63,853 bases of DNA, filler included, from Folioceros fuciformis (GCA_049999805.1; 10 parts of 10 records of this genome joined end to end with filler, not necessarily neighbours in it), one strand, 5' to 3'. Counted from the whole stretch's first letter, positions 451 through 41,259 are shown. Translations and numbers: made by a program. The notes: generated by a model not told the origin, from the sequence alone.

Positions 451-2295
451 TTAGCCGGAAGCTACATGCGAGCCGTCCAGGGCCTCGCAGGCACAAACGG
501 GAGACTGGGAGAAGGGCACCTCTTGCCTTCCACGCTGATACTGCTGCTTCTCCAGGACCCGGGTCACCCAGGACGCGAGGTACGTTGCATTTAGACCTAC
601 AGTGGCGTCTTTGTGAAACAGGAAGCATCTGAGTTCCTCTGATGGAGGGTGTGGGCAGTCTGGGCCTTGGGGGTCTCGCCACACGCCTTCGTGACGAAGG
701 CGGGACCAGTCTGCCAGCCACTTGTAGATGTACTGCCCGATGCCTGCGAACTCCAGCCATCCTTTGGGGAGCATCTCCATGATAGCACCGCCGGGAGACA
801 TGAAGAGCATGTTGGTGAGCTGGGCTCCGTGGGGTGTAATGAAGACGTCCGTGCTGCTCATCACTTGGACCTGCAGGTGATGGGGGGAGAGTCGTCAGAG
901 TTCAGCAGGAATGGAGCTGAAATGGGTGGGCAAGCAGAGGGTGGTGGACGTGACCTGTTCGCAGAAGCTTAAGTTGGCGACGGGCACCACTTGAAGACGA
1001 CACCCAGCAAACTTCCGGCACTGCTCGTCTATCACAGAGGCCACCCCTGATTCGTTGGTAAAAGCCCTGGCCCCCGATCTGGTGAGCAGGGTGACTGAAA
1101 TCCCCTCCTCTGCAGGGCCCGGACCTTTCACCTTACAGAACTTCCTGGCCCTACACCTGACGATGTCAATGAGGGTGTTGAGATTTTCCAGGGACATGCC
1201 TCCCAGCCCTCGCCTGTTCACAACAGCCCTCTCGAAACACACAGGTCGGTCACCATAAGGAGCTGTGGCATCTGTTCGGAGAGAGCCTCCCAAGGCTGAA
1301 CGCATGATGCTTGCAATCCACGGTCCCATGTCCGTCACAAGCTCTCCCCAGTGGTATAGGACCAACCTGTTGGGAACTGCACATGAATTCCTAGATCTCC
1401 AAGATATGAAATACACCAGAGCCGACATGCTGTGCCAAGGGTTGTGGTAGTCCCAGTAATTGTCAGCCACGAGGGTCAATCCTGGCATAAACACGGCATT
1501 AGATGGTAGGAAATCCTTCCACGCGAAGGCATAAAAGTTCAGAGTGCCGTCATAGGAGTGGTTGCCCTTCAGGCATAACAGCCTCTTGTACGGATCATCT
1601 GCTGGAAAGTCAAATGACTCCGGCAACCCGTCCTTTGACTGACCGTCAATGGAACTCATGAACCAATTGTGGCCAGTTTCACTCAGCCCAGATTCCCGGC
1701 TGTCTTTCAATTTCCGAAACACTGTGGACGCAACCAGCTTGCTTCTCATGTCAGCAACAACTCTCCTGTGCTTCTCAGACAACTCCAACCTGTCACTCTC
1801 GTCCCTCTCCTCCGTCGCCCTCCGATCGGACTCTGCTGCTGCCCTTCCTTCAGTTACGCCTTTCGTCAGCAATGTAATCCTCTCCTTCAAAGTCACTGCC
1901 TCCCTCCTCAGGCTCTCCAACACACTAATCGCCGCGTCCACATCTGCGCTGTTCGGGCTTCCCAGGAACAGAACCTCCTTCAGGCAGGACACTTCTTCAA
2001 CCATGGCTTCCAACGAGTCGTTCCTGCTAGCACATAGCAGAGATGCTCTCATCCGGCTCCGCATGTCACGCAGCTGTGATGCCACACTAACCTCCGCTGC
2101 ACTGGCATTTGGACTGGACATGGAATTGCTCTCAGAAAAGATGTCCACGAGGGGTTTGCTGGCCTTGGAGTAGGAACAGTACCACTTCGTCTCAAAAGCC
2201 CAAAACTGCAGGAAAATAAGAAACCCAATGCAAACAGCCAGGTAGCTCAGAAACTTCTCGTCTCTGCAAAAACTCTGCGGCTTCAGGATGGCCAT
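451..2295 (-). CDS. Glycosyltransferase family 61 (DUF563) type II membrane protein, 2 exons (2295-955, 870-451)
   Basis: N-terminal TM helix, coiled stem, NPWHSMSAL and CFERAVV segments, and C-terminal STDVFITPHGAQLTNMLFM...EMLPKGW. An 84-nt GT-AG intron (954-871) joins LSFCEQ|VQVMSS in frame. Confidence 0.88.
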
Positions 2296-3106
2296 CCCCT
2301 CCCGCTATGCCTCTCCCGAGATAAGGGCAATGTCTTTCATCACAGAAATCAGTTCCCTGCACCATACGTCATCACCTTCATTCATGCCCACTCCCTACAC
2401 TCCAGTCCCAGAGGCCAGCATCCGCAGCTCCTCTGTCTCTGTCCTTAAACTGGACCATACAAAACCGTGCTTGCAACTCCAGCAACCACACAATGTAAGC
2501 ATCAGCAGTAGCAGCCATCTCTGCAAGAACTTCGCGCTCTGTTCCTCAAGAAAGCGTGCAAGCCGGAACGCGGATCTTGTTGCAACCGTTCACGGTCCTT
2601 CGTCTCAATACTGAACCCTACGCTCAAATACCCACTGTCCAATCCAGTCCGATCGGGGACGGGGACGTTTCTTTTTTCAAGAAACCGATTCGAAACGGCA
2701 CAAGACCACCTGGCTTCGCTGCACAGTAGCATGCCTCCCCTGGCTTTACATGTGTCACCGGCTTTGCGCGCAGGATGGAAGCTTGTGTGAATTCGACCGT
2801 GGTGCCACCGCCACACGACACCTCTGCAACCGTTTCACAAGCCTGCTTCCTCCGCCAAGTATGCGCAATCCGATTCCCATTTTTCATTGAAGGAAATGTT
2901 GTGCAGCTGCAGCTTGCGCTTGTCGTCAGTGACTTCCGGTTTGTCACCGATTCTTGCAGCGTGGCCGTCCGTTCTGTTGCATGTGCGTTGTGTTTTTCTG
3001 TTTTGAACACGTCCGCTTTCGTCAACCGCAACTTTGATGTGTTGCAAACTTTGCAGGTGCTGGGAGAAAACTTGAGGCGTAGACAATGCTTGCTGCTTTA
3101 TGATCA

Positions 3107-3988
3107 ATGGACGTGGAAGAGACTTTATTGTGGCTCGTGTTCGGGCGGCTGGACAGCCAGAGCCTGGCCGCTGCATGCCTGGTGTCAAGGGAGTGGCTGA
3201 AGGCAGCGAGGGATGAGGACCTGTGGAAGCATCTGTCGTGCGAGAAATGGCCTTCTCTTGCCACGGACGGTGGGAGGCGCGTGCTGGAGTCGTTCGGAGG
3301 AAGCTACAGGGAGTTTTACGCGCAGAGGAGCAAGGCAGCGCGGTTTCGATCGCATCCACCTCCCGAACTGCAAGTGTATGATCTTATTGTTCTTTTGGAC
3401 ATCCAGTTTAACGGGGACACGGTTGCTTCTGTCATTCGGCGAGGGGATGAAATGACTCCGATCCATAGCTGGGAAGGGAGTATGTTTCGTTTCTCCTTGG
3501 ATATAACGAAGGCAGATCTGGGAAGGACACCGGGGTTCGTTAAGGTCAGTTCTTTGGATCCCGGAACAGGAACTACCCAGGACTCTCGTGGAGCGGCAGT
3601 GGATTGTCATGGCCACGCCCTGAGGAAGCTTAGAAGATCCGAAATCAAGAATTTCGATGTGAGTTGGGCCATCATGGTGCAAGGAAGCTCCAAGATTGTG
3701 CAGGTCCTTCAGACAAGGGGAGGCACTTTTGTGGACAATGTGTGCTCCTTCTCCGGCCGGTTGCCTCGCATTGTTGGATATCCCGTGACTGCAAGCAATC
3801 TCATGGCGGAAGTGGATCTGGTGTTCGAATCCACTCGAGATCCACGAGCAAGCGCCAGTCGCACATTCCTCCGCTACTCTACCTTCAAGGAGATCCGCGT
3901 GAGCGTGATCAATGCAGACTCCTGGCGATACATATCTCATGACGAAGCTCTAGGATATTTGCACCATCTGCTCCAACATCACGACTGA
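3107..3988 (+). CDS. F-box protein, single coding exon
   Basis: 293-aa ORF with an N-terminal F-box motif: LLWLVFGRLDSQSLAAACLVSREWLKAARDEDLWKHL. Confidence 0.85.
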   Translation: MDVEETLLWLVFGRLDSQSLAAACLVSREWLKAARDEDLWKHLSCEKWPSLATDGGRRVLESFGGSYREFYAQRSKAARFRSHPPPELQVYDLIVLLDIQFNGDTVASVIRRGDEMTPIHSWEGSMFRFSLDITKADLGRTPGFVKVSSLDPGTGTTQDSRGAAVDCHGHALRKLRRSEIKNFDVSWAIMVQGSSKIVQVLQTRGGTFVDNVCSFSGRLPRIVGYPVTASNLMAEVDLVFESTRDPRASASRTFLRYSTFKEIRVSVINADSWRYISHDEALGYLHHLLQHHD

Positions 3989-7785: not shown

Positions 7786-8968
7786 GACGATGCAGATCGA
7801 CGTCGCTGCTGTTGGCAGTACCCGTCCGTCAGCGGGCCTCACAGCCGACGGGCTGGGCAGGACAAAGACGCTGCAGCGCCGTGGGCCACCATGGCCATAC
7901 CAAACCATGGGCCTGGCTGGGCCCTCCTACGTTGGGTGCTCACTGTGAACGGCAACCACATGGAAGTCCTGCCCCATTTCCCCCCAATTGCAAGCCTCCA
8001 GTATACATGACTCCCGTTCTCCATCACTACTTTTTATATCGCTTCCATCGTTTGCCTGCACACACGATTCTACGCCCGTTTTTCTTTCAAGCTACGTGCT
8101 CAATTATCGCGCCACGGTTCTGCACACACGATTCTGCACCCGTTTTTTATTTCAACTCGGTTTTCACCTCGAGCTTCTAACTTTCCACTAAAACTGCCCA
8201 GCACCGTATTTTTTGTCAAACACACTCCTTGCATATGTTTTGAAATTACAGTACTCTCATGAAATTGTATCTAGTTCTAGGTTCCCAGTGTACCAGTTTA
8301 TCTTTCTACAGTGGTTTGCATTTAAAATCTTTTTTTCACAAATATTATGATATATTTATATTTATATTTATGGTGGAAACTTAAGTTTAAATTAAATAAT
8401 TAAAATATGGACACTGTAGCATAAAAAAAGAGATGGAAATGCATATAACCCTAAAACAAAGGTGGGATGACCGGTCACTTAGATTAGGAAGCCTAGCCTC
8501 CATAATCATGCCTATTGCAATGACAAAGATGACAAGATCAAACAACAAGATGTCTGATGTCTGGATTAGATGGGATAATGTTTCTTAACATCTGATATTC
8601 AAGTGCGTCCGAGACAGTGCTCCTTGACATCCAATGTCTAGGACAATGCTCATGGGCCTACATGGACATAGACATAGATAATGCTGAACCACGCAAATTG
8701 GACGTTTGGTGCACGTGGTAGTAAGACGAGGCTTAGAGCTTAATAAAGCCCTTTCAGTCCTCCGATTTGATGAGGCATGAAGAAGAAGAAGAAGAATTTT
8801 ATTTAAGTCCACTAAGGACATATTTCTGTCATGGTACAAAATTGTCAGACATTGAAAAGAAAAAGAAGACACTTAACAGTTAATCTGAGCGTAATGCATG
8901 ATCTGTGAGGTTGAACTTTTACATATGTCGTGCTCTCATCTCCCACATTTGTTTCAAACAAACTCCTC

Positions 8969-9521: not shown

Positions 9522-9621
9522 NNNNNNNNNNNNNNNNNNNNNNNNNNNNNNNNNNNNNNNNNNNNTTAATTAATTAANNNNNNNNNNNNNNNNNNNNNNN
9601 NNNNNNNNNNNNNNNNNNNNN
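9522..9621. other. Artificial contig linker N44-TTAATTAATTAA-N44 (also at 11853, 14587, 37415, 41160, 48862, 51306, 56326, 61320)
   Basis: Nine identical 100-bp spacers carrying stop codons in all six frames; an assembly artefact. Confidence 0.98.
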
Positions 9622-11852: not shown

Positions 11853-11952
11853 NNNNNNNNNNNNNNNNNNNNNNNNNNNNNNNNNNNNNNNNNNNNTTAA
11901 TTAATTAANNNNNNNNNNNNNNNNNNNNNNNNNNNNNNNNNNNNNNNNNNNN

Positions 11953-13939: not shown

Positions 13940-16460
13940 CCCACGTAATCGGCAGTCATTGTTAGACAACGAGCTTGTTCAGTCGTCCTGTTCCGGACCC
14001 CGATGTCGCTCTCACTCAAACTTCGTCTAAACTGGGTCCCGAATTATTCGATTAGGTATCTAGTTAGGATTCACCGATATGATTTTCTGTTGAAGATGGC
14101 GGTAACGGCCTCGAGGTCGGCTGAACCCAAACTGGAAATGTGAGAGCGCCTTCACATCTCCTTCTTTCGATCGTCATGGGCCCTCCTTTGCTGCAGTACC
14201 ACCCGCCCCAAGACCCGACACTTGTGAAGGGCAATCCGAGATTCATCACTCTCTATTCCACGACGGTATCGCGTCCCTGCCCTTCACGTTCTGCGTTCAA
14301 TATGGGAAGATGTTGCTCACAAAACTTGCATCCTCTTCCAGTTTCTTCTCCCGGAGAGGGAAGATTATCCCGGGCCGAAGCCAGGACTCGGCTACTACAG
14401 GGCCCGATGGCACCGAAAGCCATTTGATTTTCCCTTCGGAAACACACTGTACAGGTTAGATATTTCTGCGTCTCAGATCGGGGAGAAGAATCCTTGTGCC
14501 TGCCGCAGCCCACAAAGAAGGCAAAAATTACGCGATACCTTATCACTTTCAGCTTGCCCGTCCTGCAGCGAGACGTTCTCCAAGCCNNNNNNNNNNNNNN
14601 NNNNNNNNNNNNNNNNNNNNNNNNNNNNNNTTAATTAATTAANNNNNNNNNNNNNNNNNNNNNNNNNNNNNNNNNNNNNNNNNNNNTCCTAGCGGGGTGT
14701 GAAATTCCACGGCGGGACTGGACGAAAGGCGGTGCAATCCGTGGGTGCCGGCACCGATGGGGCTATTAAGGGGGTGACGACCCGGCAGCCAGATCATCCT
14801 AAGGTATGAAACGTGAGCATGCCAGGTGGGACACATTGGCTGCCACGACGGAGCCAGGACCGTCGGCACGTCGCTTTAGGACACGCGCTGGCTTGCGCCA
14901 GCCTCCCGCGCGCCCCTTCACGACCCACATCATGGGTGTGTCGTCTCCACGCCGTTCTTTTATTATCACAGGCTTTTAACACCGTTTCCTAGCTCCTATG
15001 TGTGTACGTATGTACGAACATATTTCGGTCTTCAATTTCTCATGGTCTTCTCAAATGGGCCGGGTTGAGCAATCTCCTCGAAGAACTTCGCCTCAACAGC
15101 ACGCACTCCAGATCGAGTCAGCAGGTTATGCAATCTTGAAGAAATCGAAAGGTCTGCATATTATATTGAGGTAGTGCATCAAGCGGCATACACTCCAGCC
15201 CCGCCCGCCCTGGTTGTCACCCGCTTGCTATCCCCAACCTCTTCCACGCCTAGGAATCTGTGATTCCTCTCTACCCCAACCTCTCCTGTTTGTCGGAATC
15301 TGCGATTCCTTGCAATCCTCTACTTAGGGTTTTAATGATTTCACCATCTTCCTCCACTTCCGAGGTTTGGGAGTCTTTGGCCCGACCCGCTGGCGCTCCC
15401 AAGTGCCTAAGGCTTCGGATCTCGCGACTCATCGCAGGAAGGAACAAAAGCAAACCTCTGCGACTAGGTAGAGTAGATAGAGGGTTTCGCTGTCCAACAA
15501 GACAGCCGCGGACCCTGCCCCGTCACCGGGCAAGAAAGGCCCGAATCTGATCCCGCTACACAGTCGGGCAGCAGCAGGTCTAGCCCTCTTGTTCAAGAAA
15601 TCAACTACAAGATTAGCCTGCCCGACAGCAAATCAGCTGTGATCTGATCCCACCGCCTAGTGGCTCCGATGCGAGCCCGGCCCCGGAATCCCAGAACTCT
15701 GGGAAATTTAGCGGACCCCGCAGAGCATTGAGATATGTCCATATCGGCGACATCAAGGACCAGCCACAGCTCCAGAGCCGGCGAGAACCCACCGCGGGAT
15801 CAGCTTGTCGCTCTTCAGCCAACAATAACCAGCAGCCGGGGAACAGCCGCTCCACTTCTCAGGCAAGAGGGATCAGCTCACTGGCCAGCGGAACAGCTGA
15901 ACCCGGGCAAGACTGCATGAATTGGAAAATTGGAGAAAACAAACAGGCCATTCCTGGCCTCACTAGCACCCTTCTGGTATCAGCCTAGACCTCCTGAGGA
16001 GTGTTGCAGTGTTCAAAAGACCAAATGCCAGAGCTAGCTTCGCTGTATGCCCATAGAGCGCATCTCTCCATCGGGCGCTTCCATGTCACCTGCGGAGGCC
16101 TCTTCCTTCATAGTAGATCTTCTATTCCACCATGTGTAATGTTTTTTGGCTAGAGTACTTGAACACAAATCCAAGAGACAACACAAGACAATCCTTGCAA
16201 GTCCGAAAAACCAATGTTCCATGAATGCATGGCTGATGGCTTGATAAGTTGATTTTCTCTTTCCATGCGTCTCTCAAGCACTCTATCTTGATGCAAATAA
16301 TGGTTAACAGAGTTTTAACGGCTCAAAATAAAAGGGGCAATACTTACTTAGCAAGGCCTACACAACAGCCACATGGATGTATGTAATCTTACAAAATTCT
16401 CATGGCCTCGACCAAGATATGCATTCAAACAAAGCGATCACAAGGTGAGCAAATACTGAC

Positions 16461-16668
16461 TGTTCCCCTCCTCTATTCCTTCCTCTCCAACAAATCTATA
16501 GGTAATTTGTTCCAACCAATGCAGCCCTTGTTCTCCCTCCTCTATTCCTTCCTCTCCAGCAAATCTATGGGCAATTTGCTCCAACCAATTCAGCCCTTGT
16601 TCCTCCTCCTCTATTCCTTCCTCTCCAGCAAATTTATGGGCAATTTGCTCCAGCCAATCCAGCCCTCA
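16461..16668. repeat. ~69-bp tandem repeat, 3 copies
   Basis: TGTTC..CTCCTCTATTCCTTCCTCTCCA.CAAAT.TAT.GG.AATTTG.TCCA.CCAAT.CAGCCCT repeated; the ORF at 16402 shows the 23-aa periodicity. Confidence 0.85.
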
Positions 16669-17689
16669 TGAGATGTTTATCCTCTTTTCTTGGTAGACCC
16701 TTTTGAGATGCTTCACCTCTCCTCTCCGTCAACCTTCCTTTACCCTTGTCAACTCTAATCGAGTGACCAACTCTCATTCTTGCTACACTTATTATTGCCC
16801 TATAATATATACAAGTGTTTATAACTTTTGAAGTGTTTGTAAATTTTTACCCTGTAGTAGGTAGACCCTTTCTCTTCCAAGAATGTTTTAGATGCTATTT
16901 CTCTTCCAAGAATGTTTTAGATGCTATTGGTAGTCATTAGGTTTAAGGGGTTAGTCCCTAGTGTTCCTATCATAGTTTATCTCCCTCTTGGGATAGATGG
17001 GTTTTTCATTTTATTCTTCTTAAATAAATTAATTAATTTTGAAGTAACTTGCTACTGTGAACCATAATCTAATATAAATATATACATGCATCACTCAAAG
17101 CAGTTTTTATCATAAAAAAATTAATTTAATAACTTAGGTAGATTTACAATATAAAGACATAGCATTTTTAAATTGAACACTAATCACAATATTATTCTAT
17201 AATAGTAACTAAGTATTTTCAACCCTTTGGAAGTTTGGTCCTATTACACAAGCTTAAGTATTCATTCATCTTTGATACCCAACTTGGCTTATGTCAAGAG
17301 AAGCGGTCTCCATAAATAGATATAAAGTACATGGAGGAAGGCATTGGTCTTTCAACACGCCTTCTTGAACCCAAAATTTTGCATGTTGACACTTTCACAA
17401 CTATTTATTCTAATACATCACTCTGGGCTAAGTGAAATGTTTTTTTGGGTTTTACATGGATGACTTTTTTTAACACATGTCCATTTGAGATTTATGATAA
17501 AATATCAAAAATTAGTTGGACTTGCATGTTTTTGGAAAAGTGCAAAATGGGTTTTATGGAATCCAACCATTTGGCACATAGCTTCTTAAAAGACTATCCT
17601 ATGAAAAACCTTGCTACACAAGTGGATTGTGACCACTGCTTCTATTGCCTACTACAATCGCGGGCAATGGATTCTAGCAAGAAATGAGA

Positions 17690-18200
17690 AAGGGCGTTAG
17701 CCTACTTGCACCCTACTCATACACAAGGCCAATAGGTATGCACCAAGGGCACCCACTCATAAAAGGGCGAAGCCTACATTTACCCTTTCTAGGCCATACA
17801 TGACCTTCCACCTGTAGGGTTATTAAAGCCCAATGTGCTTAGGCTAATGTGTTTAGTCTAAGATTAGTGTCTAGTTAATGTGCTTAGACTAATGTGTTTA
17901 GTCTAAGATTAGTGTCTAGTTAAGTATCATTAGTTTAGATTAGCTTAAGCTAATCTGTAGGAAGCTTCTTGCGCAGCTTCCTATGAGCTTCTTGTGAAGC
18001 TTCCTAGGGAGCTCTTATAGAGGGTATAAATACCCCTTGAGCTCCCTTGCCAACCACTCTCAATGTGACCTCTTTTTCTCCTCTCCTCTCTGCCTCCTCT
18101 TCTCCTCTCCTCCACCATGCTCCTCTAGTGTTCCTACACCACCCACCTCCTAGGTAGAAGACCTTCGTAGCAATAGACTACGTTTGCTTAGTAAAGACTT
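17690..18200 (+). mobile_element. LTR-like sequence (45-bp tandem duplication at 17832-17923, TATAAATA followed by a CT-rich tract)
   Basis: Layout typical of a plant LTR; the boundaries are not determined. Confidence 0.45.
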
Positions 18201-19850
18201 CATATTAATGAGAGGCTATTGCTTTGACAATAGTTATCAGGATGGCAAGAGCTATGAGGGCATCGACATGACGCTTTCCCCAAAACAATACATTTGCCGA
18301 AAAGAATTCAAATAGCATTTGGTAAGAGAAGGATCTTTCAGGTGTGTCTCCGCCCGACCGCATTTGTTAAGCTTTATGGTTGGAATCATCAAGAACCGTA
18401 GCAAGGTTTCCTACTTGGCTCTTCTCTTGTTTAGGAATAATTAATTCTCCTCCTCAAAAACATCTTTTGAAGACCACTAGATGCACATTTTTATTGCAAT
18501 AGGTTTGTCCGTAGTCCAAGTTTATTTGTTCAATGTCGCCTATGGCCAACAAGAAACCATATGCTCTTCTCACTTGCATAGGAATGGCAACACTTCTTTA
18601 GTCAACTAAGGTGTTCAATTGTGGCTTTCGATGGAACAACAAAGACTCATGCAAGCAACACCACCTAGAAATTGTCATCCTCACTACCGCTCTCATGTCT
18701 TGAGTTTAGGCCTTGGTAGGCATATCAGGCAGCAAGGCCAACACGACCACATTTCTTGAGTCCCAGTTGCATCACCTCTATACTCCTCCTTCCTATTGCT
18801 TTCCCCAAGATGCATTGCATTGTGTTGGTGAGGTTTATGTTTTGCGGGGTTGAAGGCATATTGTTTATTAAGCGAGAGCGGAGAGCGGAGAGCGGACGCT
18901 CCACTAGCGTACTTGCATTAAATTTAGGAATTGAGTGAAAGTCCTGGTTAAAATTTAATGGCAAACTTCCATGTTCCATTATAGTAGGTTTACTTCTAGG
19001 CCCTTATCCTCTACTTTGTGCACCAATGCTTATGGGATCAATTGCATCGTCCACATGTCGCTTTTCTTGGGGTGCCACTTCGCCGACATTTGGCAGGGTA
19101 GCAGTAGTAAGACATATGGCAAAAATGCCATATCTCATGCTTTCTTCATCTCACGAGTGAACCCTCAAAGCATCATTTGCACCAAACAAGCCTTGGCTAC
19201 CTACTGTGATCGTCACGACCAACAATGTTGCCTTCATCTTATTTGTAAGGCTGATGAATTTGTGGGCAGATTGGATAAGGAGCACCGACTATGGAAGCAA
19301 CATAAGAAGAAACCGCAAGCATCGACAGTTGCAAAGGCAATACCCTTGCCAACCTCAACGTTGAGGACAAGGAACTTGCCTCAACAGAAGGATGAAGTGG
19401 AAGTGACTTACGGAAGGGAGGAGGGGCAATCAACCCGAGTCTTGGGAGTGTAGGCTATGGGCACCATAGCCTTGGTAGTGAGGGATCTCACAAGTCCTAA
19501 GGACTTGTGAAATTTGACCCTCAAGGCTTGAGGTCTGCTGGGAAAGCTCGGCCGTATCCTTCTCCATACACATACAATAGTGCACCTTCGAAAAATTACT
19601 ACCAAGGCAAACACAATCAATATCCAAAAGAAGGATTGGATGGTATTACAGGGTATTAACCCCAAGGTGGACATCGTTGTGTTGACACCACTCCTCACAC
19701 TATGGTTGTACAGCTAAAAGGGATCCTGAGCTACACTGAACGAAATGCACCATTAGGGTGGATTTGGGCCATACATTGTTTGTTAGTGGTTCCAAAGTAA
19801 AGGATCGTTGTTGTAACTATCACATTTACCATGACCATCTACCGTAAGTC

Positions 19851-22800
19851 TATCTGTTAGAGGAATGTATTAGGTCTGCCTCATACAGTTCCTTATATCT
19901 TGCATCCACCATGTTCCGTTTCGTCTTACTCAACTTGTATTGTTGCCTATATATAGGCTCTTGGGTGGTAAGGTTGATACAAAAGGTTGTGACATTGCAC
20001 CTCCTGAGCTTATGCATGGAAAAGGCAAAACAGTCCTTGTACCTAAGCAGCAAGTTACGAATGCGGTCCTGCTGCTCTAGACTGAGTTTTGAACTCATCT
20101 TCCAAGGGAAATTAGTAGCAGACAGCTTGGGTGTAGCTCTTGGATCCTCCTTTTCTACCTTGGCCTGGTCAGATGCTGAGTAAACAATACCTGATGCCAG
20201 TATTGCGTACTCCACCCCTCTAGCATCTGGCCAAAAAGGCAGAGGTATGTATCCTGGGAATGGGAGGTGAATAGCAACTCCACGGCACATGCTAGCAAAG
20301 AAGCTTGGGAGTAGCATGGGAGTGACCTAAGTGTGCAACTAAAAGGCAAGGCACAAACTCACCAACCACATGATGGCATGGAGGTCCATGGCTCCCTAGA
20401 GTGCCCTTGCACTGCCGATTAGTGATGGTGGGGTCATTGTACTATGGGTATGAAAACACATGAGTCACTCTCGCTTCTCAACTATTGGTTCTTCCCAACG
20501 TTGTGTGTCACTATTCAGTAATAAGCCAACTTCTCCTCTATAAGTGAATGATCCCATAAAGCTGACCAACGTGGGCAAGGTCTGCCTTGGCTAACCTGGA
20601 ATGTTGGTCTTGAACCAAGGGGCTTTCTCACTAGCCACCATAGGTCGTGGCCGGTGCTGGGCCTCCAATATAGTACAGAGTTGTAGCCGAGGATCCCTGC
20701 TAGTGTTCTGGAGAGCCAAGTCCAGCATGGAGACAAGGACCAAATTGGTCTAGTAGTTACAAAGCTTGTGGGCATAGCTACCCACCTGCATAGCATCCAT
20801 GAGAAATGGTGGCCCTACAAAATGTCACACAATGACCATATCCTGCTACACCTATGGCCGGGTATCAAGCTGGGCTGGCATGTTCTCGAGCAAGTATGCG
20901 CACTGAGGGTTATTGTCTTATGCCCACGCCAAAATTTGCTGGAGTTTTGTGAAAAGACCAGAACATGGATCTGTCAATCCTGCACCTACACCAGCTTGAG
21001 AGAATCCCTAGCATTCCCAACCAGCCATGACCATGTCAATGGGGCCCAGGGCTTGGCCCTACTGTATATACTGGATGTCTTGAGGTAAGGACGTGAATGT
21101 ATTAGCTACAGCCTCAGCTGGCAGCTGCTGTGGGAAACGATGTTGTAGGCCTTGCAGTCGACATGCAGCAATTTGCTTGGCGATGGGGTCCTTGTCGTAG
21201 TAAAGGTATCTTTGAATGCTCAAACCAGTTAAGAGCAATGCTTCTAGCTTGGTACAAATTCCACCGAACAGTTCAATGACTGTAAGGATTGGTGTAGCAG
21301 GTGCCCATTTGATGACGTGTTGTGCACATGAGATGTGGGACAAGATGACGAAGTCACGACTTCCAACAATTACTGCACCTTGTTAACTCGCTCCTATGCC
21401 CTGGCAAGCAATGCTTCTGCTTGCTATGGACAGACAGGCTGAATTAGAGCTTGCTGCAAACTGGTACACCTAACTTGAGCCTCTACAAAATTGGTCTTCA
21501 GATTCTTCTCCACTTGGTATGTGTCTCAGACAAGCTCCACCACATTGCTACTTTTGATACCAAATGCAACTTGGCTTTTCACCAATGTGGCTACGTTAGC
21601 CTCCACCTAGCTTCCTTGCTTCTAGTCAGGGCTATAGAAGGCTTGCTCAATCCAGTTGTCCACACCAACTCTTAGCGGGAAGAGAAACTCTTGCCCCAAC
21701 AGCAAATCATAGTTGGTGGTTGTGGTTACTAGGCAAGGTAGGGGCAATGTCATGGCATCTGGCATGCTTGGGTTGAAGGTGATGTCTAGGGGTTGGACTG
21801 TCTCACCACACACTGGTTCAATGGCCTCGGACACCGTCCTGATGTTCCAGGGCGAGGTATGCAGTGCATTGCCGTGAAGATGCAACCTTGCAGCCAGAAT
21901 CTTCCCACCAAGTACTGGTTGGGCTCTCGTGTCCAGCAACACCACTCTAGGTGCATACCATTAACTTTGACGTGCCCACCACGATTGTCAACAACCGCAT
22001 TGCTGACACAAGCTTGCAATCAGTTGGTGGGCTGCACTCGCGGTTGGCTATCAACTCCCTCAGCTATCTGTACAATGTAAGGGCCACCAAATGACTCGGT
22101 GCAATCTGCCCACGTGTAGAGTGTGACACTGCTGTTGGCATCACCTACTGTGGAGTGTATGCTGCACCCAGACTAGGATCAACAAATGCAGATGTGGCTT
22201 TTGTAGTTTGAAGAACTTGCCTCAGCTTGATGCTCGTGATACCCATGTCCTGAAAGACTGGCACCTGAGTTAGCTTGGCAGCCAATTTTGTGATTATAGT
22301 GGCTTGAGGTAAGAGATACACATGCTCTGATGTTGGCATGCTCTGGCCAGGTGTTCTGCCTGTATCCAGCTATTCCACATGTAGCGTGAGTGCTCCTAGC
22401 CTTGTACTGGAATTGCAGACCCCGGTGGCAGGCGGGGACAAGGACTTTGGCATGGCAACCCTGGCCCCTCGATTCCTGGTGACAGGCCTTGAGGCGGGCG
22501 TTGTTGTTCCCATGACCACCCATATATTTTGCCCCACCCATGTGGTTGGCAATACAACCCCTCCATGCTGCTATCACCAATTTTGTCAACCATACACACG
22601 TAGTGTGCTGGGTCATAATCCTCATCCTCCTATACTGGTACTAACTTCACCGCATTGGTTGGCTTGGAAGAGGCAGTGATGCTGGACAGGCTAGCTGTCA
22701 GGACTCCAAGTTGAGCTATCATGGCAGCCTTGGAAGCCTCAAGGGAGTTGACCTTGTCAGTAGTGGCGGTTGCCTTAGCCTTAGCCTTGTCACGCTACTG

Positions 22801-25800
22801 CTTACTCCGAAACACCCCAATAGTGCCTGCAGCTCCTCCTGCTTCCACACTCGCAGTTGTGGCTCCTCCATACCCCATGGTACTAGTCGTCTGGTGTCTT
22901 CGTTTGGGGTGCTTTTGGAAGCACACAATAACCACGTGTCCATTCTTTTGGCAATGGGTGCAATAGAGTCCCTTCGGAGGACACTTGCATGCAAGGGATA
23001 TGTGCTTAGGGTTGCCACAATGGTTACACATGGCTGCCACTACTGCTGCTGGAGCTGTTGTTGAAGCTACCTTAACTGGCTTAAGTCTAACAAGTCTTCG
23101 CTCCTGCACCTGTGTTAGCTGCTCCCTTGCTAGAGAACATGGATTGGTAGTGCGTGAAGGCCTTGGAATGCCGAGAGGCATAGGCCAAGAAGGCTACCTC
23201 CTTCTTCTTAGCTTCTTCATGCACTTGCTCCAAGGTGTACTTGTCCCCATATTTGTCCACTAAGGACGTAACCAGCTAGAAATGAAACAACGGGTCTCCT
23301 TGAAGGGTAGTAAAAAACCTCTCCGTTGCTTCCTGATATATCAGCATCTCTGTACCTTCCCTCAATTTCTGTAGCCTCCTGAAGCACATTTGGACTGTCC
23401 CCCCCTTTTTATGAGCAAAGGTAGCAAAAACTACAAGTTTGTCCGGGGTCTTCAACACAAATGCCTTCTCCAAAATATCCAAGAACTCCTCCACTCGGTT
23501 CAGGTATGTGCAGGTGTGTAGAAACTTCTGCACACCAGCTGTGGTAGTAGCCCGATTTGCTCGTGACAAATTCACCGCCGTTGGAGGTGGTGTGGTGGTG
23601 GGGATGGTCTTGGCTACAATCTCCACTTGATGGTCATTAATGGTTGCTGTTAGTTTGGCATAATATGCTAATTGTAGAGCCGAGTGATGGGCAAGGTTAG
23701 GAGTGGCAATTGTGCTCGACAACTCAGCCTGGTGAGCCTCGTACAAATCCAACACCTTATCTGCGAAGTAGCTAGATAGTTTTCCAAACATGTACTGGTG
23801 GTTATGGGCAACACCATGTTTGAACTTCACCTTGCTAATGACTGCATTGATGAATAGGCGAAAATCCCTTACGGATTGGGTGTCTAGTTCTGTGAGAATT
23901 TCTCCTGCCTAAGCTCTGGTGAACCACCCTCCATGGTGTCTGACCCTTCAGACAAGTCGCCTTGGCCTTGCTGCACCGAGGATAGGCTCAGCAAACCCTA
24001 TTTGTGTCTTCTGTGACCCCATGAATGACGGCTGTGAATTGAGAAACCCTTGTTGTCCAGGTCCCTCGTGACAAACTAGTTGCCCTCTGAATCTAAGTTG
24101 GTTAGCACAACATTCCTGCTCAGATATGAGAGGGGTGACCAATTGGGTTGTCCGATGGAAGTTGCTAGTTCTGAATCCTCTCTCACGTCAACTTCACTTA
24201 ATAGTTGGCGCCGTTGAGTTGCCCTCCTTCGCCTGCGTTGTACACGCTCTGGTCATGCCCTAATAGGAACGTCTCGAATCCTCAATCGGTAACGTGGGCT
24301 GGCCTCTTGCTGATCGGGTTGCATGCCCCATGCACCCTGGTAAACCTAGAGTTGGTGATGGGGCACCCCTGTTAAACCTACAGCTGGTGCTTGGCAAAGA
24401 CGGTGAGATGTTGTGCTGCGAATGATAGCACTGGGCTTGGAGCAATAAGTCTCGCTGGGAAGCTATGCACTACTTCAGCTGTACCCACGGAACCCTTCCA
24501 CTAGCTGCTGCTGGCAACTAAATGAAATCCCTGCTTTCAAAGGCTTTCGCCTTTGACCACATGTGGTCTCCAACCAACCATGAGTGCATCACTCAACAAA
24601 TGTCACCAAGAAATGAGAGTTAGTTCCTCCCAAATTCCTAGTAGTGGCCTCCCTTCGTGCCACATCTGGTTGTAGCTGTAAGCTATCCCCCAACCTGAAT
24701 GAGCATGAGCAAAGCTCAGCTACTCCCTACCTAAATAATCCCAATTTTGGGAAAATCCTAGCCCCGGAAAATCTCAGTCCCCTAGTCTTGATAGGCAGCT
24801 GTAGCTACGATTAGAAAGCAAGGAAACACAATGTTCTTGGAGTCCTGAGGGAACAAGAAATCTACCCCTCCCCAGAGCACCTACAATCAGCCATGTCCCT
24901 CCTACTATAGTAATTTGATCTGCACTAAAAATCTAGGATCAGTTCCTGGAATCGACTTAAAAGTTAGCGTAAAGCCTACCAAAATCTTCAAGTTTGCAAG
25001 ACAAATCTATTGATATGTAGATCAAAGGCAACGGAGCGGAATTGCGTCCGTTACATCCTCCTGAAGTTTGGCATACGCACCCCCAAACTCCAAACCTGAG
25101 GCTTAAGTGCGTAAAATGCTGAGCGACTTGCTGGGGCTGCCTCGACGTGGTCTATAAATGGTGCCCTAGATGCTAGCTCTCCTGAGCCCTGTGTATAGAG
25201 CCTTAGGTTGACATGTAGTTACTGAAGGTAGAAAGGTATTTGCTACAGCACTGAGCATGCACCTTCCAAACTCACGGGTACTATAAAGGGAGAGAGGTAT
25301 TCTTCAAGGCTGCTGCCTTCATGCACATGTCTGGCTACGCCCCAAAGTCCCTACAAACCCTAAATCCCTAGCAATGCAAAGGGAAAATGGCAGACTCCAC
25401 ACAAATAGGTCTAAATGGATGCTCCAGAAATGCTGCCCCGCTATAGCTGCTTGGTTGCAACCTAAGAACTCCTCGCCTGTGCCCTCATTGCTAGATTGAA
25501 CGAGTTGTTCAAGTAAGATGTTAGGCTGCTCACATGCACCATAGCTCACTCCATGTCGTAAAACTGCAAAAAAGAGGCTGCCCTTGTTAGGTTGCCCAAC
25601 ATTGGTAAGTCACTTGTGAAATGCCACCATCACCCTTTCAATCACAATCTTGCACCAAACATTGAAAACAACTCTTTCTTTCACAGAAGGGTAGTGAACA
25701 ACAAAGAGGTCTAGGTTTCCTACTGGTTCCTCTAAAAAGCGACTTCGACAACTACTTTCCTTCATTGCCATGTTTGGTCTCCCCACTCCTTAGCTATTGC

Positions 25801-26052
25801 GTCCTCCACGCTTGCCTTGTTGGCTCCATGTTTGGTTATTATCACCAAGCTGCCTTGCATGGGCTATATGAGCCCACGCGCTTTTGTTGGGCAAGTAGCC
25901 CTGGCCAATATTTTGGCCATTCATGTAATTTAGGTTGAGCTAGTCTTTTCACCTATTATTTATCTAATTACCTATTATTAAATCAGCTAATTTAGGTTGA
26001 GTTAGTTTAACTATCTATTATCTAATCAGCTGAAAGTCATTGTGTTCCACTA
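19851..26052 (-). mobile_element. Degenerate, 3'-truncated Ty3/gypsy LTR retrotransposon with domain order gag-ZnK-PR-C5 DNA methyltransferase-RT
   Basis: gag-like ORF at about 23935-23276, CCHC knuckles CNHCGNPKHISLAC and CTHCQKNGHVVIVC, protease VLLDTRAQP...YDLLLGQEFL, MTase domain, then RT N-terminus LSLEQQDRIRNLLLRYKDCFAFS...INLTTQEPIYRQQYKLS...LYEADLI. The 5' boundary is approximate. Confidence 0.88.
20345..21289 (-). pseudogene. C5-cytosine DNA methyltransferase domain (DNMT3-like) embedded in gypsy pol, inactivated by stop codons
   Basis: Manual read-through in one frame: I ILTVIELFGGI; IV GPIDMVMAGWEC*GFSQAG; DPCSGLF; VI AYLLENMP; VIII DAMQVGSYAHKLCNY*TNL; IX WEEPIVEKRE*LMCF; X (with frameshifts) RQCKGTLG.AMDLHAIMWL. 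Confidence 0.9.
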
Positions 26053-27978
26053 AACTATCACATTTACCATGACCATCTACCATAAGTCCATTTTTATGAC
26101 AATTTTACAACATCATGAAAGTAGTGGTGTTCGAGAAGTAAGAGACTTTGAATCCCAAGGAATCAAAGATAATCACACAACATTAAAACATTTAGAACTG
26201 GGGAATATATACGATGGAGATACTGAAGGTATGCTAAAAAATAGCTAAGCTTCTAGAGCATAAATAGTACTTTTAACACATATTGCAATTTGTATTCAAA
26301 AAGTCAGTGACAAAGGCACTCACAATAAGATCTCAACTACTCAAGGATAACCTTCCTTCTCAAGAATGAAAGGGACTTTTAGCAACTCTTAAATGGTGTG
26401 GCTTGGCTTCTTGAGCCCTTGCTTGGTTAAGGAAGATTGTAAAAGCCTTCATTGAGTGTGCTTTTCTCCGGCCTTCACTAATGGTTTCTCTTTGCTAATA
26501 TCTATCAAGTGCTTACTCACAAGACAAGATGGTATCCTTTCATGCCTTTAGCCTCGATTCCGAACTTAAGACATCAAAAAGTAGGTTGAAGGTTCACGAA
26601 TCATTGAATGGTTTGGAAAGCAAATATGAGGTGCCCACAAAGGATGAAGTGGAAAGAGGATGTCCTTGGGGAAAAAGCAACACAAACAAAGATTTCACAA
26701 GCAAAAGAATGAATAGTTAAACTAGCTTAGTAACAAAGAAAATTCCTGTTCTCAACTGATATGAGCTCAACATATCATGATTGGAGGAGCAATATCAATG
26801 TTGCAGCAAGATGAGTGATGCTAGATTTAGAGTGGTGGAAACATTCATCTATATTTGTATATATGGTGGATGCAGCATTTTTCATGTATGGCATTGTGCT
26901 AATTTGGAGTGAAGGACACTCCAATGCAAACGGGAAGATAGTGAGGATTTTTTTTTCAAAGGTCTTGACAAGTGCAAACATTCAAATCACAAGAAATTAA
27001 ACTAGTGAGAGGATTCAACCTTGAATATAATGATGTATACCAATGGGATACAAGTCAAGGTTTCATCTTGTCAAACTTGGTTTGCAACAATCTTTTTGAT
27101 CTCGAAACTACATATTTAAATATGGGTGGCATGACCCAAATCACTCCTACAAAGAATCTTGGTCACATTGTCCTCTAAGTGCTTCCGTGGTTATGCTTTG
27201 TCACTTTTCATGTACAATATCCACTCAAGTAAAAGAAGAGATAAGTTTTTGCAGGTTCTTTCCAAAAAGGTTCTCCCAAGACTTGTGGACAAGGCAAATA
27301 TAAAATTGTAGAGATGCTTGCACATAGGTGACACATGTCGCAACCTAAGCCTTCAGACTTTGGTCTCATTGGAGCAATATAAATAATGGAGCGCATGTAT
27401 CAAGAATGTAGCTACCTTGCATCATACAATGTGGCCTAGATTGTAAGACAGTACGATATGGAGGGCATGGCAATGCATGCAGCAAAGGCCTGGGAACTGG
27501 GATGTGGCTTCGGACAAAATATCTACACTGTTCGATGAATAGCAATTGAGTAGTGTAAAGGAGGCGTGCGAAGACCAAATGTGTCGGATGCGGGTTGGTT
27601 GGTGTCGGGCAGAGGAGGCAGCCAAGGGTACAGTATGGAAATTATGCAAAAAGAGGAGTGTACGAAATGTGCAGGTGTGACAGAGGCATAGCAGGCTTAG
27701 CAGGTGTTGTAGCTCCAGTTACAGCTGCAGAGCCTACAGTCCCTACAGCTACAGCACGTTCAGGATCCAGAGCCCGAGGGTCCGGCCGGGGCCCAAAGAA
27801 TTGGTTGGAACGGCGAAAGCGGGCCCGGGTTTGCGGCTGGGAGCGAGCGCGGCCACACAGCTGTGATTATTCAAAGGAAGCGGTTCCCCCGCCATTGGCT
27901 TCCCCCTTGTGCCCGCCTGCAGTGCCTCCGGACGGGGCTTGCGCAGCAAGCGCGCCGGCACAAAGAGGCTCCGAGGCC

Positions 27979-30514
27979 ATGGCCGCTGGCTTTCGCCCTT
28001 TTCCTTCATTCTTTCTCACCTCTGACACGTCCCCGGCCGCGAATGGAGCCACGGCGCGCCCGGGGTTGGGAGCGGCAGCTGCTGCAGCTGCAGCTGAAGG
28101 GGATCGTGCGAGTCGAGTTGCGGCCGGCGGGGCTGTGGCTATGGCGTCGCTGGTAGAGCCTTCGACGCTGGAGCGGAGGTGGCAGCAGCAGCAGCGGCGA
28201 AAGCAGGTGGTGATGCCTGAATTGCGGTAGCTGGTTGGAGGGAATTGTGGGATTGCGGCTGACTGCGCCGCTGCTGCTGCGGCTTGGGTGCAGAGCACTG
28301 CGGGTGAGCAGGGAGCGGAGGAGGGGAGGATGGGAGTCGGTAGGCAGGGCCGGCCTCGGGCTGAGCGGTCTGCGGCTGTGGATTGCTCTTGTGGGGTATT
28401 TCTCTTGAGGCCCCATATTCTTCGATTGGCCGGGGGGCCAGGGCAGCGTCGGCGGAGGAGGCTGCGGCCCAGCGCTGCGCTGGCCCTGGAGAGTGATGCT
28501 GCCGTGGGCGCTCTGAGGTGGGTTGGGATGTGTGGTGTCGGGGATGTTGGGTTGGGGGAATAATGGGTGTTCGTTGCAGCAGAGGGGTGCGACTTGGTGG
28601 GTTTTTCGCGCTTGGCTGACACGGCACGAGTGAGGCGTGCAGGGTGGAGCTCGCCATGGCTGTAGGAGTCGAAGTGATCCCGCATCCGAAGAAGGTGTGG
28701 GCGCGAATGTATACGCATTTTTGCTTGTTATGAATGTGAATAAGGCGGATGTGGGCGGTTGAGGTGCAATTGGGTCCTCATGGTTCGAAGGTTGGATCCG
28801 TTTTTATGTCTGGGCAGGTGGAGAAAGGTGGGGAGGACGCTCACTTCGTGAGTGATTGTGGGGGTGGTGTCATCGGCGTGGCTGATGGAGTGTCAGGGTC
28901 AGTTGTAGCTGGTTGCTGAACTGGGTTGCGCTGCCCCTAGCTTGGGTAGAATCGAGGTTGTGACAAGGCCGTGGGATGGGTGCCAGGTGGGCCGAGGAGA
29001 ACGTAGATCCGGCCCTGTTCTCCAGGGAGTTTGTAGCACATGCGTCGAAGTTGCTGCAATCTGGACAGGTGGGCTGATCGTCTTGGGCTCACGAGGAGGA
29101 TTGCAGTGACGGTCATGCTGACATGGTTCGAGTGTGGTCTGGCTTCAGGATGTCAGAGACCCAAGAGCTCTCCTCCGGAAGGCACATCAAGCTACCAAGT
29201 CGATTGGTGCGGCAACAGTGTGAGTACACAGGTCACATGTGTTTCATCTGTTAATGTCCTCAGAGGGCTGCTGAATTCCTCGTGGCATGCAGTTGTGTGG
29301 CGGCCCTTGAAAAAAAGGGAACGTTGCACATTGCAAACCTGGGGGATTGTGGGCTTCGAGTGGTCCGCGGCGGTGCGTTCGCAATTCGCTGCTGGCGTCC
29401 TTTCTGGTTGCTTGCCGTGTGTTGATGCTGCACGCCCTTCGGCTTGTCACTGGTGAAAGAGTTTTTGTGTGGATGGTGACAGGTCGCGTGGTTTTCGGGA
29501 CAGCACCACAACAGCACTACTTCGATTGTCCCTACCAGTTCAGCTCTGCTCCTGGTGCCCAATCAGCCGCCGATGCTGCGGTATGTGGGCCCTCCTCGGT
29601 GGGTTTGTGACTCTGCGCCGGCGTGTTCATCCGCTGCGAAATATGACACGCTGTGTCCGTGAATGCTCCACTGTGCCAGGTATACCATCTTCCCGTGAAA
29701 CAAGGGGACACAATTGTGCTGGGTTCGGATGGCCTGTTCGACAACGTCTACGATCGAGACATCGAATACTTCGTCAACAGGTCTTCTGGCACAAACAAAG
29801 ACTCCGCTCAAACCACTGGTAATTTGCTCTCTACATCACGGACCAACTCCAATCTGAGTCTTCAGCAGCGCTTCTGTGTTATCTGCCAAATCCCTGTACT
29901 GACGCCACCTGCTGTCACTCCCAGCCATTGCTCTAGCATCACTTGCCTACAGGCATTCCAGGGACGAAAAATATGAGTCTCCGTACACTCGGGAAGCAGT
30001 TGCTCAGGTTCGATGCAGACCAGCCCGAACCCTATCCCTTGTTACCGTTCCCAACACTCGTGGGCGTCGTCTGTTGCTGTTTGTCTCACGTCGCAAGCAT
30101 TGCGCAGGGCATCGACGTGCCGTTTTGGAAGAAGATTCTTGGACAGAAGCTGACTGGTACCGTTCAATCCTCCTCGCTGTTGCCATTACGTCGACCTCTT
30201 CGGTGTCTTAACAACTCATGCGCAACACTTCTGCAGGAGGAAAACTGGATGATATCACTGTCGTCGTCGCACATGTTGTGGACGCAAGAACATTAGCCCG
30301 ACCAGCGAGCCCACCTGCCGTGGAGGACTCCATGGAACTATCTCAGCCTTTCAGCGGCTCCGATGCTGGCACAGTGGAGGACTCCTTAGACACCTCGTCC
30401 TCGGGCTCTGTGTCCTGTGACTCCCGAACCATCTCCATATCCGTGGACTCGCCTCTGGGTGTGGAATCCGTATCGATAGACTGGCGTACCATTCGACGAC
30501 AGCCTTCGAGGTAA
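27979..30514 (+). CDS. PBCP: PP2C (PTC7-type) photosystem II core phosphatase-like, multi-exon
   Basis: IPHPKK|VEKGGEDAHFVS...VADGVSG|WAEENVDPALFSRE, HIANLGDCGLRVVR, PQQHYFDCPYQFSS, GSDGLFDNVYD, GIDVPFWKKILGQKLT|GGKLDDITVVVAHV. Transit-peptide-like Ala-rich N-terminus. Confidence 0.9.
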
Positions 30515-32847: not shown

Positions 32848-33710
32848 TCATTCGCTTTCTTTCAGGCAAAGGGTCACGACTCCAGCCAGCTTCCTGCAAG
32901 CGTCCAGACATAGTTCCATCGACTGTGATGCCCGTTGGGCGCTCCATTCCCCATTAAGATGGAAATAAGTGATCTCGTTTCGCGAGGGCATGTAAGCCAG
33001 AGTGATGCCACCATCCTCCCACTTCTCTTCTTGCGCCGTGGAATCCAGCAGCAGTTGTTGCCCCACGCAGCTCGCCGAGATGGCCGTCACCAGGTCATTC
33101 ATAGCAATGCCCGCATCCGCCAAGGCCATGGAGGCGCAGGAAATGAGTGCAGGCAATTCCCCACCTCCAGACTGCAAAATCAACGCAAACACATCCACTG
33201 TGGTCTTCGGGAATGTGTGCAGCTGCACGGCCCCCTCCAGCGCCTTGTGCAACAAACTCGAGAGCTCCTTGTCCTGGCTCGCCTTTCCCCTAGGAGAGGT
33301 GGCGAAGGGAGTGAACTCCACAGCACAGTTTAGCCGGCCCTGGTCGCTGAACGCCTGCGCTTTCTTGCTCTCCCTCGGGCCGAAAACAGACACAATAACC
33401 TTGGTCTCCCCAAGCTCCACATATCCCGATCCCGCAGCTCCACTCACCGCTCCCACCTGCATAACTGCCCATCAAACCGATATCCATCAAACAATCTGAA
33501 TCACAGACACTGTGTCGCAGCAATTCGGAAGCCAACACAAGGAAAGCACAAAACCCTAGGATGCAGATTCTCACAGGCAGTGCGGCACTCCCTGGCTGCT
33601 CTGCCGTCCAACCTGGTGCCATCGGGGGAAAGCAGGACAGGACGACCCGCCTTGGACGATAAGTCTGCTCGTGCAACTGCGTAAGTGGCCCCCGCTCCTC
33701 TGCTCGCCAT
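32848..33710 (-). CDS. RRP41L: Exosome RNase PH-like subunit RRP41-like/MTR3, 2 exons (33710-33575, 33464-32848)
   Basis: RLDGRAARECRTAF, GSGYVELGETKVIVSVFGPRE, FPKTTVDVFALILQSGG, ASMALADAGIAMNDLV. Confidence 0.88.
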
Positions 33711-37414: not shown

Positions 37415-37638
37415 NNNNNNNNNNNNNNNNNNNNNNNNNNNNNNNNNNNNNNNNNNNNTTAATTAATTAANNNNNNNNNNNNNNNNNNNNNNNNNNNNNN
37501 NNNNNNNNNNNNNNAAGGTAGTTGAGGGGGTCGGCGGTAGTAGTCGAGTCGTGATGAGGTTGAGGTAGCTAAATAGGTGATGGGTGAGCGGAAGACTGAC
37601 CTAGGTGGTAATTGATTTTTAGAAGAAACATGTGTTAT

Positions 37639-41159: not shown

Positions 41160-41259
41160 NNNNNNNNNNNNNNNNNNNNNNNNNNNNNNNNNNNNNNNNN
41201 NNNTTAATTAATTAANNNNNNNNNNNNNNNNNNNNNNNNNNNNNNNNNNNNNNNNNNNN

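Follow-up and report, generated by a model that had tools for sequence, protein, structure and literature searches.

Layout of the locus

The window (the whole stretch of DNA that was analysed, 63,853 nucleotides with filler included) carries on its minus strand, at 19856-23935, the remains of a retroelement in which a DNMT3-like C5-cytosine DNA methyltransferase domain lies behind an aspartic protease. We read these remains, with a probability of about 85%, as an old, inactive 5' fragment of a long terminal repeat (LTR)-type retrotransposon of Ty3/gypsy order that would have carried its methyltransferase between the protease (PR) and the reverse transcriptase (RT), and as an element of the same kind as the Gypsy-DNMT3 of Klebsormidium nitens. 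The parts of the window copy, in their order along the minus strand, are as follows.

23180-23935, minus strand: gag (capsid-like); P0178 residues 21-247 align to 23875-23180, E 2.9e-29, 32% identity
22897-23028, minus strand: two CCHC zinc knuckles, CNHCGNPKHISLAC and CTHCQKNGHVVIVC; P0178 residues 290-333, E 1.5e-10, 48% identity
21957-22298, minus strand: spacer between nucleocapsid and protease; P0178 residues 619-725, 21% identity (weak), joined with the protease segment
21625-21951, minus strand: retropepsin-type aspartic protease; P0178 residues 728-836, 48% identity; P0028 residues 1021-1133, E 6e-13
20327-21322, minus strand: DNMT3-like C5-cytosine methyltransferase, pseudogene; from PF00145, P0001 and the family alignment A1; P0178 match at 21322-20531
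19856-20326, minus strand: linker and conserved stretch before the RT (pre-RT); P0001 residues 84-572 align to 21313-19925 (tblastn)

Intact relatives served as tblastn queries, for example P0178, a protein of 1214 aa whose single open reading frame (ORF) comprises gag, two CCHC knuckles, protease and DNMT. This protein is collinear with the window copy from gag through the knuckles, the spacer and the protease into the DNMT. An initial annotation, made from the sequence alone, had placed gag, two CCHC knuckles, a protease and a methylase block in this order on the minus strand, and the tblastn alignments of P0178 recover all of them at or near the coordinates it gave. The gag ORF (23908-23276) is open for 210 codons, and one in-frame stop falls within the aligned stretch of gag. 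The knuckles have C-x2-C-x4-H-x4-C spacing in translation and lie in a frame different from that of gag; the spacer occupies a third frame and holds 3 in-frame stops. The protease runs for 109 codons without a stop, and its active-site triplet is D-T-R in the window vs D-T-G in P0178. DNMT and pre-RT stretch are read in a single frame across 21322-19856, in which the linker and pre-RT part is free of stops for 157 codons.

Pfam searches of the three minus-strand frames of 17000-24500, with stops read as X, returned PF00145 as the sole match (E 0.016, 15.1 bits) and no protease family. No gag family was found by Pfam in the gag region, zf-CCHC reached just E 3.5 over the knuckles, and the pre-RT stretch (19850-20326, in the DNMT frame) had no Pfam match. 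The CCHC knuckles, protease and pre-RT stretch of the window copy were assigned via homologues, as was gag. The part of P0178, P0085 and P0105 that corresponds to the protease matches Pfam Asp_protease_2 or gag-asp_proteas.

The methylase block resembles DNMT3

Alignment A1, which also served as a profile, comprises 32 family members and has nine invariant positions, including the catalytic Cys and the motif VI Glu. In this alignment the motifs of the window block stand in canonical order: ELFGG, GWEC-stop-GFS, LLENM, DAMQVGSYAHKLCNY-stop-TNL, LPTLVS and G-AMD, which we take to be motifs I, IV, VI, VIII, IX and X. The unpermuted arrangement called in the initial annotation is thereby upheld, and the catalytic Cys (C186 in P0001 numbering) lies at 21013-21011, precisely where it had been located. 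A plant DRM identity was rejected on this order; DRM would have motifs VI-X before I-V.

The DNMT block alone (21382-20327) scored E 0.0015 and 18.5 bits against PF00145, for which the gathering cut-off is 22, whereas the relatives P0105, P0028, P0001 and P0178 lie above the cut-off at 46.1, 45.5, 36.6 and 28.5 bits. The PF00145 comparison that the initial annotation had proposed is thus passed by these relatives and missed by the window block. The low score fits decay, with 12 stops in the block, and not a different family. A phmmer search of the window block against solved structures ranked a chance GNAT match first (E 0.033) and reached DNMT3A at just E 0.27, over motifs I to VIII. Taken alone, the window copy is only suggestive.

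When the A1 profile was compared with solved structures, 57 sequences matched at E<=0.01. The best 29 of these are DNMT3A, 3B or 3C (7e-28 to 7e-21, the best being DNMT3A) and are collinear over motifs I-X. Six DRM entries come next, at 8e-15 and weaker, with profile positions 89-227 aligned to DRM residues 221-352 only; they are followed by M.HhaI and other bacterial enzymes and by DNMT2. DRM was matched by its C-terminal half only, as expected from its permuted order. Neither DNMT1 nor a chromomethylase is among the 57 solved sequences that match A1. An AlphaFold model of P0001, with A1 as its alignment, had pLDDT >90 over about residues 90-410, and a Foldseek search with this model returned DNMT3A, 3B or 3C in all 32 best rows (top 6w89_A, E 3.4e-17, TM 0.81 by target), at a fold-alignment identity to DNMT3A of ~19-21%. 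Among characterised enzymes, the profile and the predicted fold point to the DNMT3 type for the window block and its family, in unpermuted form, and the earlier call of DNMT3 and not DRM agrees with both.

To our knowledge, almost all C5-methyltransferases have a Pro-Cys pair. In the 123 family domains, the catalytic Cys is preceded by Glu in 65 and by Pro in 38 (E-C-Q vs P-C-Q), and window motif IV (21016-21008) reads Glu-Cys-stop. The nearest protein-atlas cluster is labelled PF00145, 'Eukaryota, commonest Streptophyta', and scores 0.80 with the whole protein and 0.96 with the domain; clusters of phage methylases do equally well, and the match, which has no resolution below phylum, is a lead only.

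Intact relatives share the arrangement

In a search of 5.8 billion proteins the DNMT block matched P0001 (574 aa; E 9.4e-80, 43% identity), a likeness well outside what chance would give, and 4 more proteins, 3 of which carry PF00145. A search of 1.84 billion cluster representatives gave 954 matches at E<=1e-3, 494 at <=1e-10 and 137 at <=1e-30, and many of the 954 are polyproteins of 1000-3400 aa. Within one ORF of 2188 aa, P0105 holds the domains CCHC-PR-DNMT-RT-RNase H-integrase (zf-CCHC at residue 530; Asp_protease 796-888; PF00145 978-1226; RVT_1 1421-1575; RT_RNaseH 1638-1766; Integrase_H2C2 1895; rve 1967-2061). The same order is found in the intact ORFs P0178, P0105, P0162, P0113 and P0028. 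The initial annotation's description of a Ty3/gypsy-type element, with an intronless DNMT between PR and RT in the frame of the polyprotein, is borne out by P0178 and P0105.

We fetched 183 proteins and sorted them by BLAST with probes from P0178, P0001 and P0031; 180 matched, near-duplicates included. The methylase follows gag or PR, or precedes pre-RT or RT, in 26 of the 180, lies between RNase H and integrase (INT), often with a PHD finger behind, in 90, and stands alone in 64. In a FastTree phylogeny of 123 DNMT domains, a single branch (SH-like support 91, not starred) separates all 15 PR-DNMT-RT rows from all 81 RT-DNMT-INT rows. Since the two architectures split in the DNMT tree, the methylase evolved together with its element. 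The window DNMT groups in this tree with P0001 and P0008 (support 98, starred).

A scan with P0178 gave 20 metagenome loci, several of which are near-copies from different records (~8 independent). DNMT comes straight after PR in 15 of the 20, and in 8 of these 15 it is followed by pre-RT, RT, RNase H and integrase. The Ty3/gypsy order is complete in relatives (P0105 and these 8 of 20 loci), and the window copy retains only gag, CCHC, PR and pre-RT from it.

These loci bear directly on whether the arrangement is a one-off chimera, formed solely at this locus when a fragment of a host DNMT3 gene or of another element entered an otherwise ordinary gypsy element. In favour of a chimera, no second copy has the depth of the window copy, and in 3 of the 20 loci (L002, L003 and L009) PR is followed by RT with no DNMT in between; L006 is gag-PR only. 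L007 is a short DNMT-only contig. In L002, L003 and L009, however, the protease runs directly into residue 75 of the RT probe. DNMT, pre-RT and the first 74 RT residues are missing together, and for this reason the three loci are internal deletions and not the original state. The single frame of the DNMT and pre-RT, the same order in the five intact ORFs and the separation of the two architectures in the DNMT tree also speak against a chimera, which we regard as very improbable. The PR-DNMT junction in 15 of 20 metagenome loci and such placements in 26 of 180 matching proteins likewise show that the block is not the one-off nested insertion which the initial annotation had named as a refutation.

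All three loci that hold both ends of an element (L002, L003 and L014) have A-coding-B-A-B repeats and not two plain LTRs. The arrangement spans 8162-15963 in L002 (A 8162-8461; B 15336-15496; A 15513-15812; B 15803-15963), 1639-9335 in L003 and 8285-18353 in L014. Between diverged metagenome copies the DNMT has a dN/dS of 0.12-0.36, with 0.12-0.16 for L007 versus the others (dS about 1.0-1.2, near saturation) and 0.33-0.36 between subfamilies (dS about 0.3). The ratios are raised because all 8 copies compared hold 1-9 stops, and they show purifying selection on the DNMT among the relatives.

In the same sample as the window, contigs 90-99% alike cover gag, PR, DNMT (20510-20760 and 21012-21262) and pre-RT at a word depth of 70-290, a measure that sums all contigs and is not a copy number. 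At the locus the word depth is 10-19, steady across 18251-25500 in two runs. These values indicate further diverged copies in the window's own sample.

Decay of the window copy

The window element has 16 in-frame stops in 988 aligned codons, and the DNMT block has 12 in 332 codons (9 TAG, 1 TAA and 2 TGA). The DNMT stops lie mostly at family Q, W or R positions; one stands immediately after the catalytic Cys and another in place of the conserved Trp of motif VIII. Five aligned segments fall in frames -1, -2, -3, -2 and -1, which amounts to at least 4 frame changes relative to the single ORF of P0178. The initial annotation had attributed the broken frame to stops; they are present, but the frame changes break it as well.

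The window DNMT nonetheless keeps 9/9 invariant family positions, C186 and E228 included, and 18/25 nearly invariant ones. Two of the 7 differing positions are sites at which the reference P0001 itself deviates from the family, and the other 5 are losses (Q187, R268, W273, G372 and R388 in P0001 numbering). Such retention, catalytic Cys included, favours a domesticated or working host methyltransferase gene that merely stands beside retroelement debris. That explanation is extremely improbable in view of the 12 stops, among them those beside the catalytic Cys and at the motif VIII Trp, and of the element parts that flank the DNMT on both sides in collinear order. Stop codons read as sense codons are not indicated either, as host ORFs on the contig that holds the element (14687-37414) terminate normally under the standard code. 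Among runs recorded as RNA none contained the stretch, and run X4, tentatively taken for RNA, placed just 2 pieces, at 18080-18139 and thus outside the element; neither observation has any bearing on expression.

The CpG observed/expected ratio is 0.31 in the element vs 0.66-0.70 in genic contigs, and 0.24-0.37 in each segment of the element. Such depletion is what prolonged methylation and deamination leave behind.

The density of stops in the DNMT (12/332 codons) is six times that of gag, CCHC, PR and pre-RT taken together (4/656; Fisher p 0.0008), and the loss of CpG is even across the element despite this excess. One idea is that the copy came from a non-autonomous lineage whose DNMT was already free to decay.

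Truncation before the reverse transcriptase

Alignments of P0105, P0113 and P0162 end at 19856-19859, leaving 14-23 residues to the start of their RVT_1 domains. What the initial annotation took for the RT N-terminus at 20120-19851 is actually the conserved pre-RT stretch. RT, RNase H and integrase were absent from the window in tblastn searches with P0105, P0113, P0162 and P0031, and Pfam found no family in any of the six frames of 14990-19851, hence no RT, RNase H or integrase domain there. No direct repeat >=40 nt flanks the element, whose 3' half is missing, within 8000-32000.

Contigs from two public runs of one sample, which may be the source of the assembly itself, bridge the break at ~19856 (X1 record 2, 18775-20088; X2 record 11, 18899-20088), and the truncation is therefore present in the DNA. 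Together with the single DNMT/pre-RT frame, the bridging contigs argue against a mis-assembly that joined the element to an unrelated methylase. At the nucleotide level, 14687-28000 matched the 20 metagenome loci over just two short segments, one around the protease active site and one around DNMT motif IV, and the limits of the 5' leader were not fixed by homology to these loci.

With its stops and frameshifts, and with no RT, RNase H, integrase or terminal repeats, the window copy can do nothing. It is dead, inert and incapable of any function, and the self-methylating role that had been suggested for it is excluded for this stop-riddled, frameshifted 5' fragment.

Just past the truncated end of the element are tandem repeats at 16466-16672 (69 nt, 3 copies) and 17832-17921 (45 nt, 2 copies). 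The summed word depth at 18000-18250 is ~11,000 in run X1 and ~8,000 in run X2 vs 10-19 nearby; this segment is a very abundant short repeat, purine-rich in translation.

Placement of the host

The window is a chain of contigs (counted as 11) joined by linkers that place a stop in all six frames, and genes that flank a linker need not be genomic neighbours. The retroelement lies on contig 14687-37414 together with ordinary host genes.

9522-9621, 11853-11952, 14587-14686, 37415-37514, 41160-41259, 48862-48961, 51306-51405, 56326-56425, 61320-61419: linkers, N44-TTAATTAATTAA-N44
32848-33471: RNase PH exon, host gene on contig 14687-37414
35250-35828: ORF with UVR and SnoaL_3, host gene on contig 14687-37414

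The RNase PH exon matched 323 proteins at E<=1e-20, and every organism-named match among the best 120 of these is a land plant. Identities within the best 120 are 63-68% for liverworts, Sphagnum, Diphasiastrum, Ceratopteris and conifers, 61% for Selaginella and 56-64% for angiosperms; the closest match is P0184, at 74%. In a quick IQ-TREE phylogeny of 40 rows, unrooted and without an algal outgroup, the host RNase PH groups with P0184 (support 98, starred) on the non-seed-plant side of a split supported at 99 (starred). On these comparisons we consider a non-seed land plant the probable host, with moderate confidence.

A different source would be an alga that grew on or together with the sequenced plant, or a host that is itself a streptophyte alga, in which case nothing would be extended to land plants. 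The only described Gypsy-DNMT3 host is a charophyte (PMC5890265), and the closest intact relatives of the window element come from metagenome records. The host RNase PH shows much the same identity (59-68%) to every named land-plant group, has just P0184 as a close relative, and sits in the unrooted tree where an outgroup would attach; the assembly, moreover, is a chain of short contigs. Against this, the organism-named RNase PH matches within the best 120 include no alga, the RNase PH exon and the element share one contig without a linker between them, and the word depth of 10-19 holds steady across 18251-25500 in both runs. We judge an algal source rather unlikely. The extension into an embryophyte that the initial annotation envisaged thus gains from the named RNase PH matches, but the tree position also fits an algal outgroup.

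Comparison with known elements

The nearest described system is KnitGypsy-Dnmt3 of K. nitens. According to PMC5890265, the DNMT3 domains of this alga are intronless, unpermuted parts of a Gypsy element's Pol ORF, with Ka/Ks <0.2, and the legend to Fig. 4c gives the KnitGypsy-Dnmt3 repeats as arranged as in DIRS elements. The elements described here share with it the intronless, unpermuted DNMT3-type domain inside a Pol polyprotein with Gypsy domains, and purifying selection (Ka/Ks <0.2 there, 0.12-0.36 among relatives here). The relatives L002, L003 and L014 also share the A-coding-B-A-B repeats, a layout that could not show in the window copy, whose 3' part is missing. Common to both, too, are the traces of silencing, with copies silenced by methylation there and a CpG observed/expected of 0.31 here. 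They differ in the host, here probably a non-seed land plant and not a charophyte, and in that the window copy is a dead 5' fragment.

SymbioDIRS-Dnmt3 of Symbiodinium, as described in the accessible text of PMC5890265, likewise has a DNMT3-type domain in a retroelement Pol ORF and an A-coding-B-A-B arrangement, which is spelled out there, and its enzyme methylates CG de novo in yeast. Unlike SymbioDIRS-Dnmt3, which has a tyrosine recombinase in a separate ORF, the relatives of the window element encode both a retropepsin and a DDE integrase (rve, Integrase_H2C2) within a single polyprotein. The same text treats the Gypsy and DIRS DNMT3s as independent captures, and later papers, in the portions available, write 'streptophytes (Gypsy-DNMT3)' with citation of this 2018 work.

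Host DNMT3 enzymes (animal DNMT3A/3B/3C, and plant DNMT3 with DUF3444 as given in the accessible text of PMC6453930) share the catalytic fold and motif order of the family. In contrast to these enzymes, the domain is embedded here in a polyprotein, and motif IV is mostly E-C-Q and not P-C; Pfam found no PWWP, ADD or DUF3444 companion domain in the relatives. LTR elements of the RT-RH-DNMT-INT-PHD type (P0031, P0036, P0043, P0041 etc.; RH, RNase H) carry a DNMT related to that of the window (33-39% identity, E 1e-40 to 1e-55) but there the domain separates RNase H from integrase, and a PHD finger comes after. EpiLTRs (bioRxiv 10.64898/2026.05.21.726589) are likewise LTR retroelements with a C5-methyltransferase. 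As described in the available part of that preprint, their DNMTs are sister to DNMT4 and are accompanied by an adenine methylase, and on this description they are a different capture from that of the window.

Proposed mechanism

In active ancestors of the element, as distinct from the window copy, the DNMT would have been translated as part of Gag-Pol and released by the element's protease. It may then have been enclosed in the particle with RT and integrase, where cDNA is made, and could have methylated the new cDNA or the DNA around the insertion site. These steps draw on general knowledge of Ty3/gypsy elements. For DIRS elements, methylation of new cDNA or near the integration site is proposed in the accessible text of PMC5890265. 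The window copy would have been methylated by the host after insertion, would have decayed by C-to-T changes and would have lost everything from RT onwards.

Several points weigh against the interpretation of the window copy as a Ty3/gypsy-order element that carried a methyltransferase. By itself the copy falls under Pfam's PF00145 threshold (18.5 vs 22 bits), and Pfam found no protease, RT or integrase in it, so that neither the retropepsin nor the RVT_1 match by which the initial annotation had proposed to check it was recovered. No terminal repeats were found around it, which leaves both its termini and its LTR or DIRS-like character tentative. The word depth, as a sum over all contigs, does not count copies. 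The host RNase PH falls in a polytomy with lycophytes, liverworts and mosses, which an alga or a third, hornwort-like bryophyte lineage would join. Kinship with KnitGypsy-Dnmt3 rests on its printed description and not on a tree, and the published element may have the order PR-DNMT-RT or else RT-RH-DNMT-INT. As for activity, the one KnitGypsy-Dnmt3 domain tested gave no methylation in yeast; the accessible text of PMC5890265 calls this result inconclusive because human DNMT3B failed too. With no methylation by KnitGypsy-Dnmt3 in yeast and most members E-C-Q and not the canonical P-C-Q, DNA methylation by the element-borne family is at present only predicted.

DNA methylation is the host's main weapon against transposons, and plant DNMT3 genes were lost in flowering plants. 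A transposon with its own de novo methyltransferase turns the logic of host defence around. We tentatively propose, at odds somewhat short of even, that a land-plant lineage, possibly as deep as hornworts, hosted a multi-copy retrotransposon family with its own DNMT3-like de novo methyltransferase, most members being Glu-Cys. Element-borne DNMT3s would then be no charophyte oddity. They would belong to an extensive, ancient group, with 954 clusters at 50% identity and two architectures, which came through the transition from water to land and might have influenced the methylation machinery of plants or traded genes with it. If the host is a land plant, embryophyte genomes, too, would have harboured such elements; this touches on the past of plant DNMT3 genes and on the ways in which retroelements may mark cDNA of their own. 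The single streptophyte case published so far is that of a charophyte alga (PMC5890265). Full-text literature searches, with subscription journals and supplements outside their scope, turned up no land plant with a Gypsy element that carries a DNMT. The wider family may matter more than the relic: it is large, its two domain orders go with the split in the DNMT tree, it evolves under purifying selection, and it is mostly E-C-Q, which poses a well-defined question for biochemistry.

Other features of the window

Rfam (at gathering scores) and ARAGORN gave no match in the window. Long open host-like exons lie at 3104-3988 (plus strand), 895-2304 (minus strand) and 44608-46677 (minus strand). One of the window's long host-like exons encodes an F-box protein (F-box-like, E 5e-8), and for ORFs of 469 and 689 codons Pfam gave no match at E<=0.001. 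The plus strand at 62587-63479 holds a fragment of a Ty1/copia reverse transcriptase, with RVT_2 at 62587-63009 (E 1e-29) and an open frame onward to 63479.

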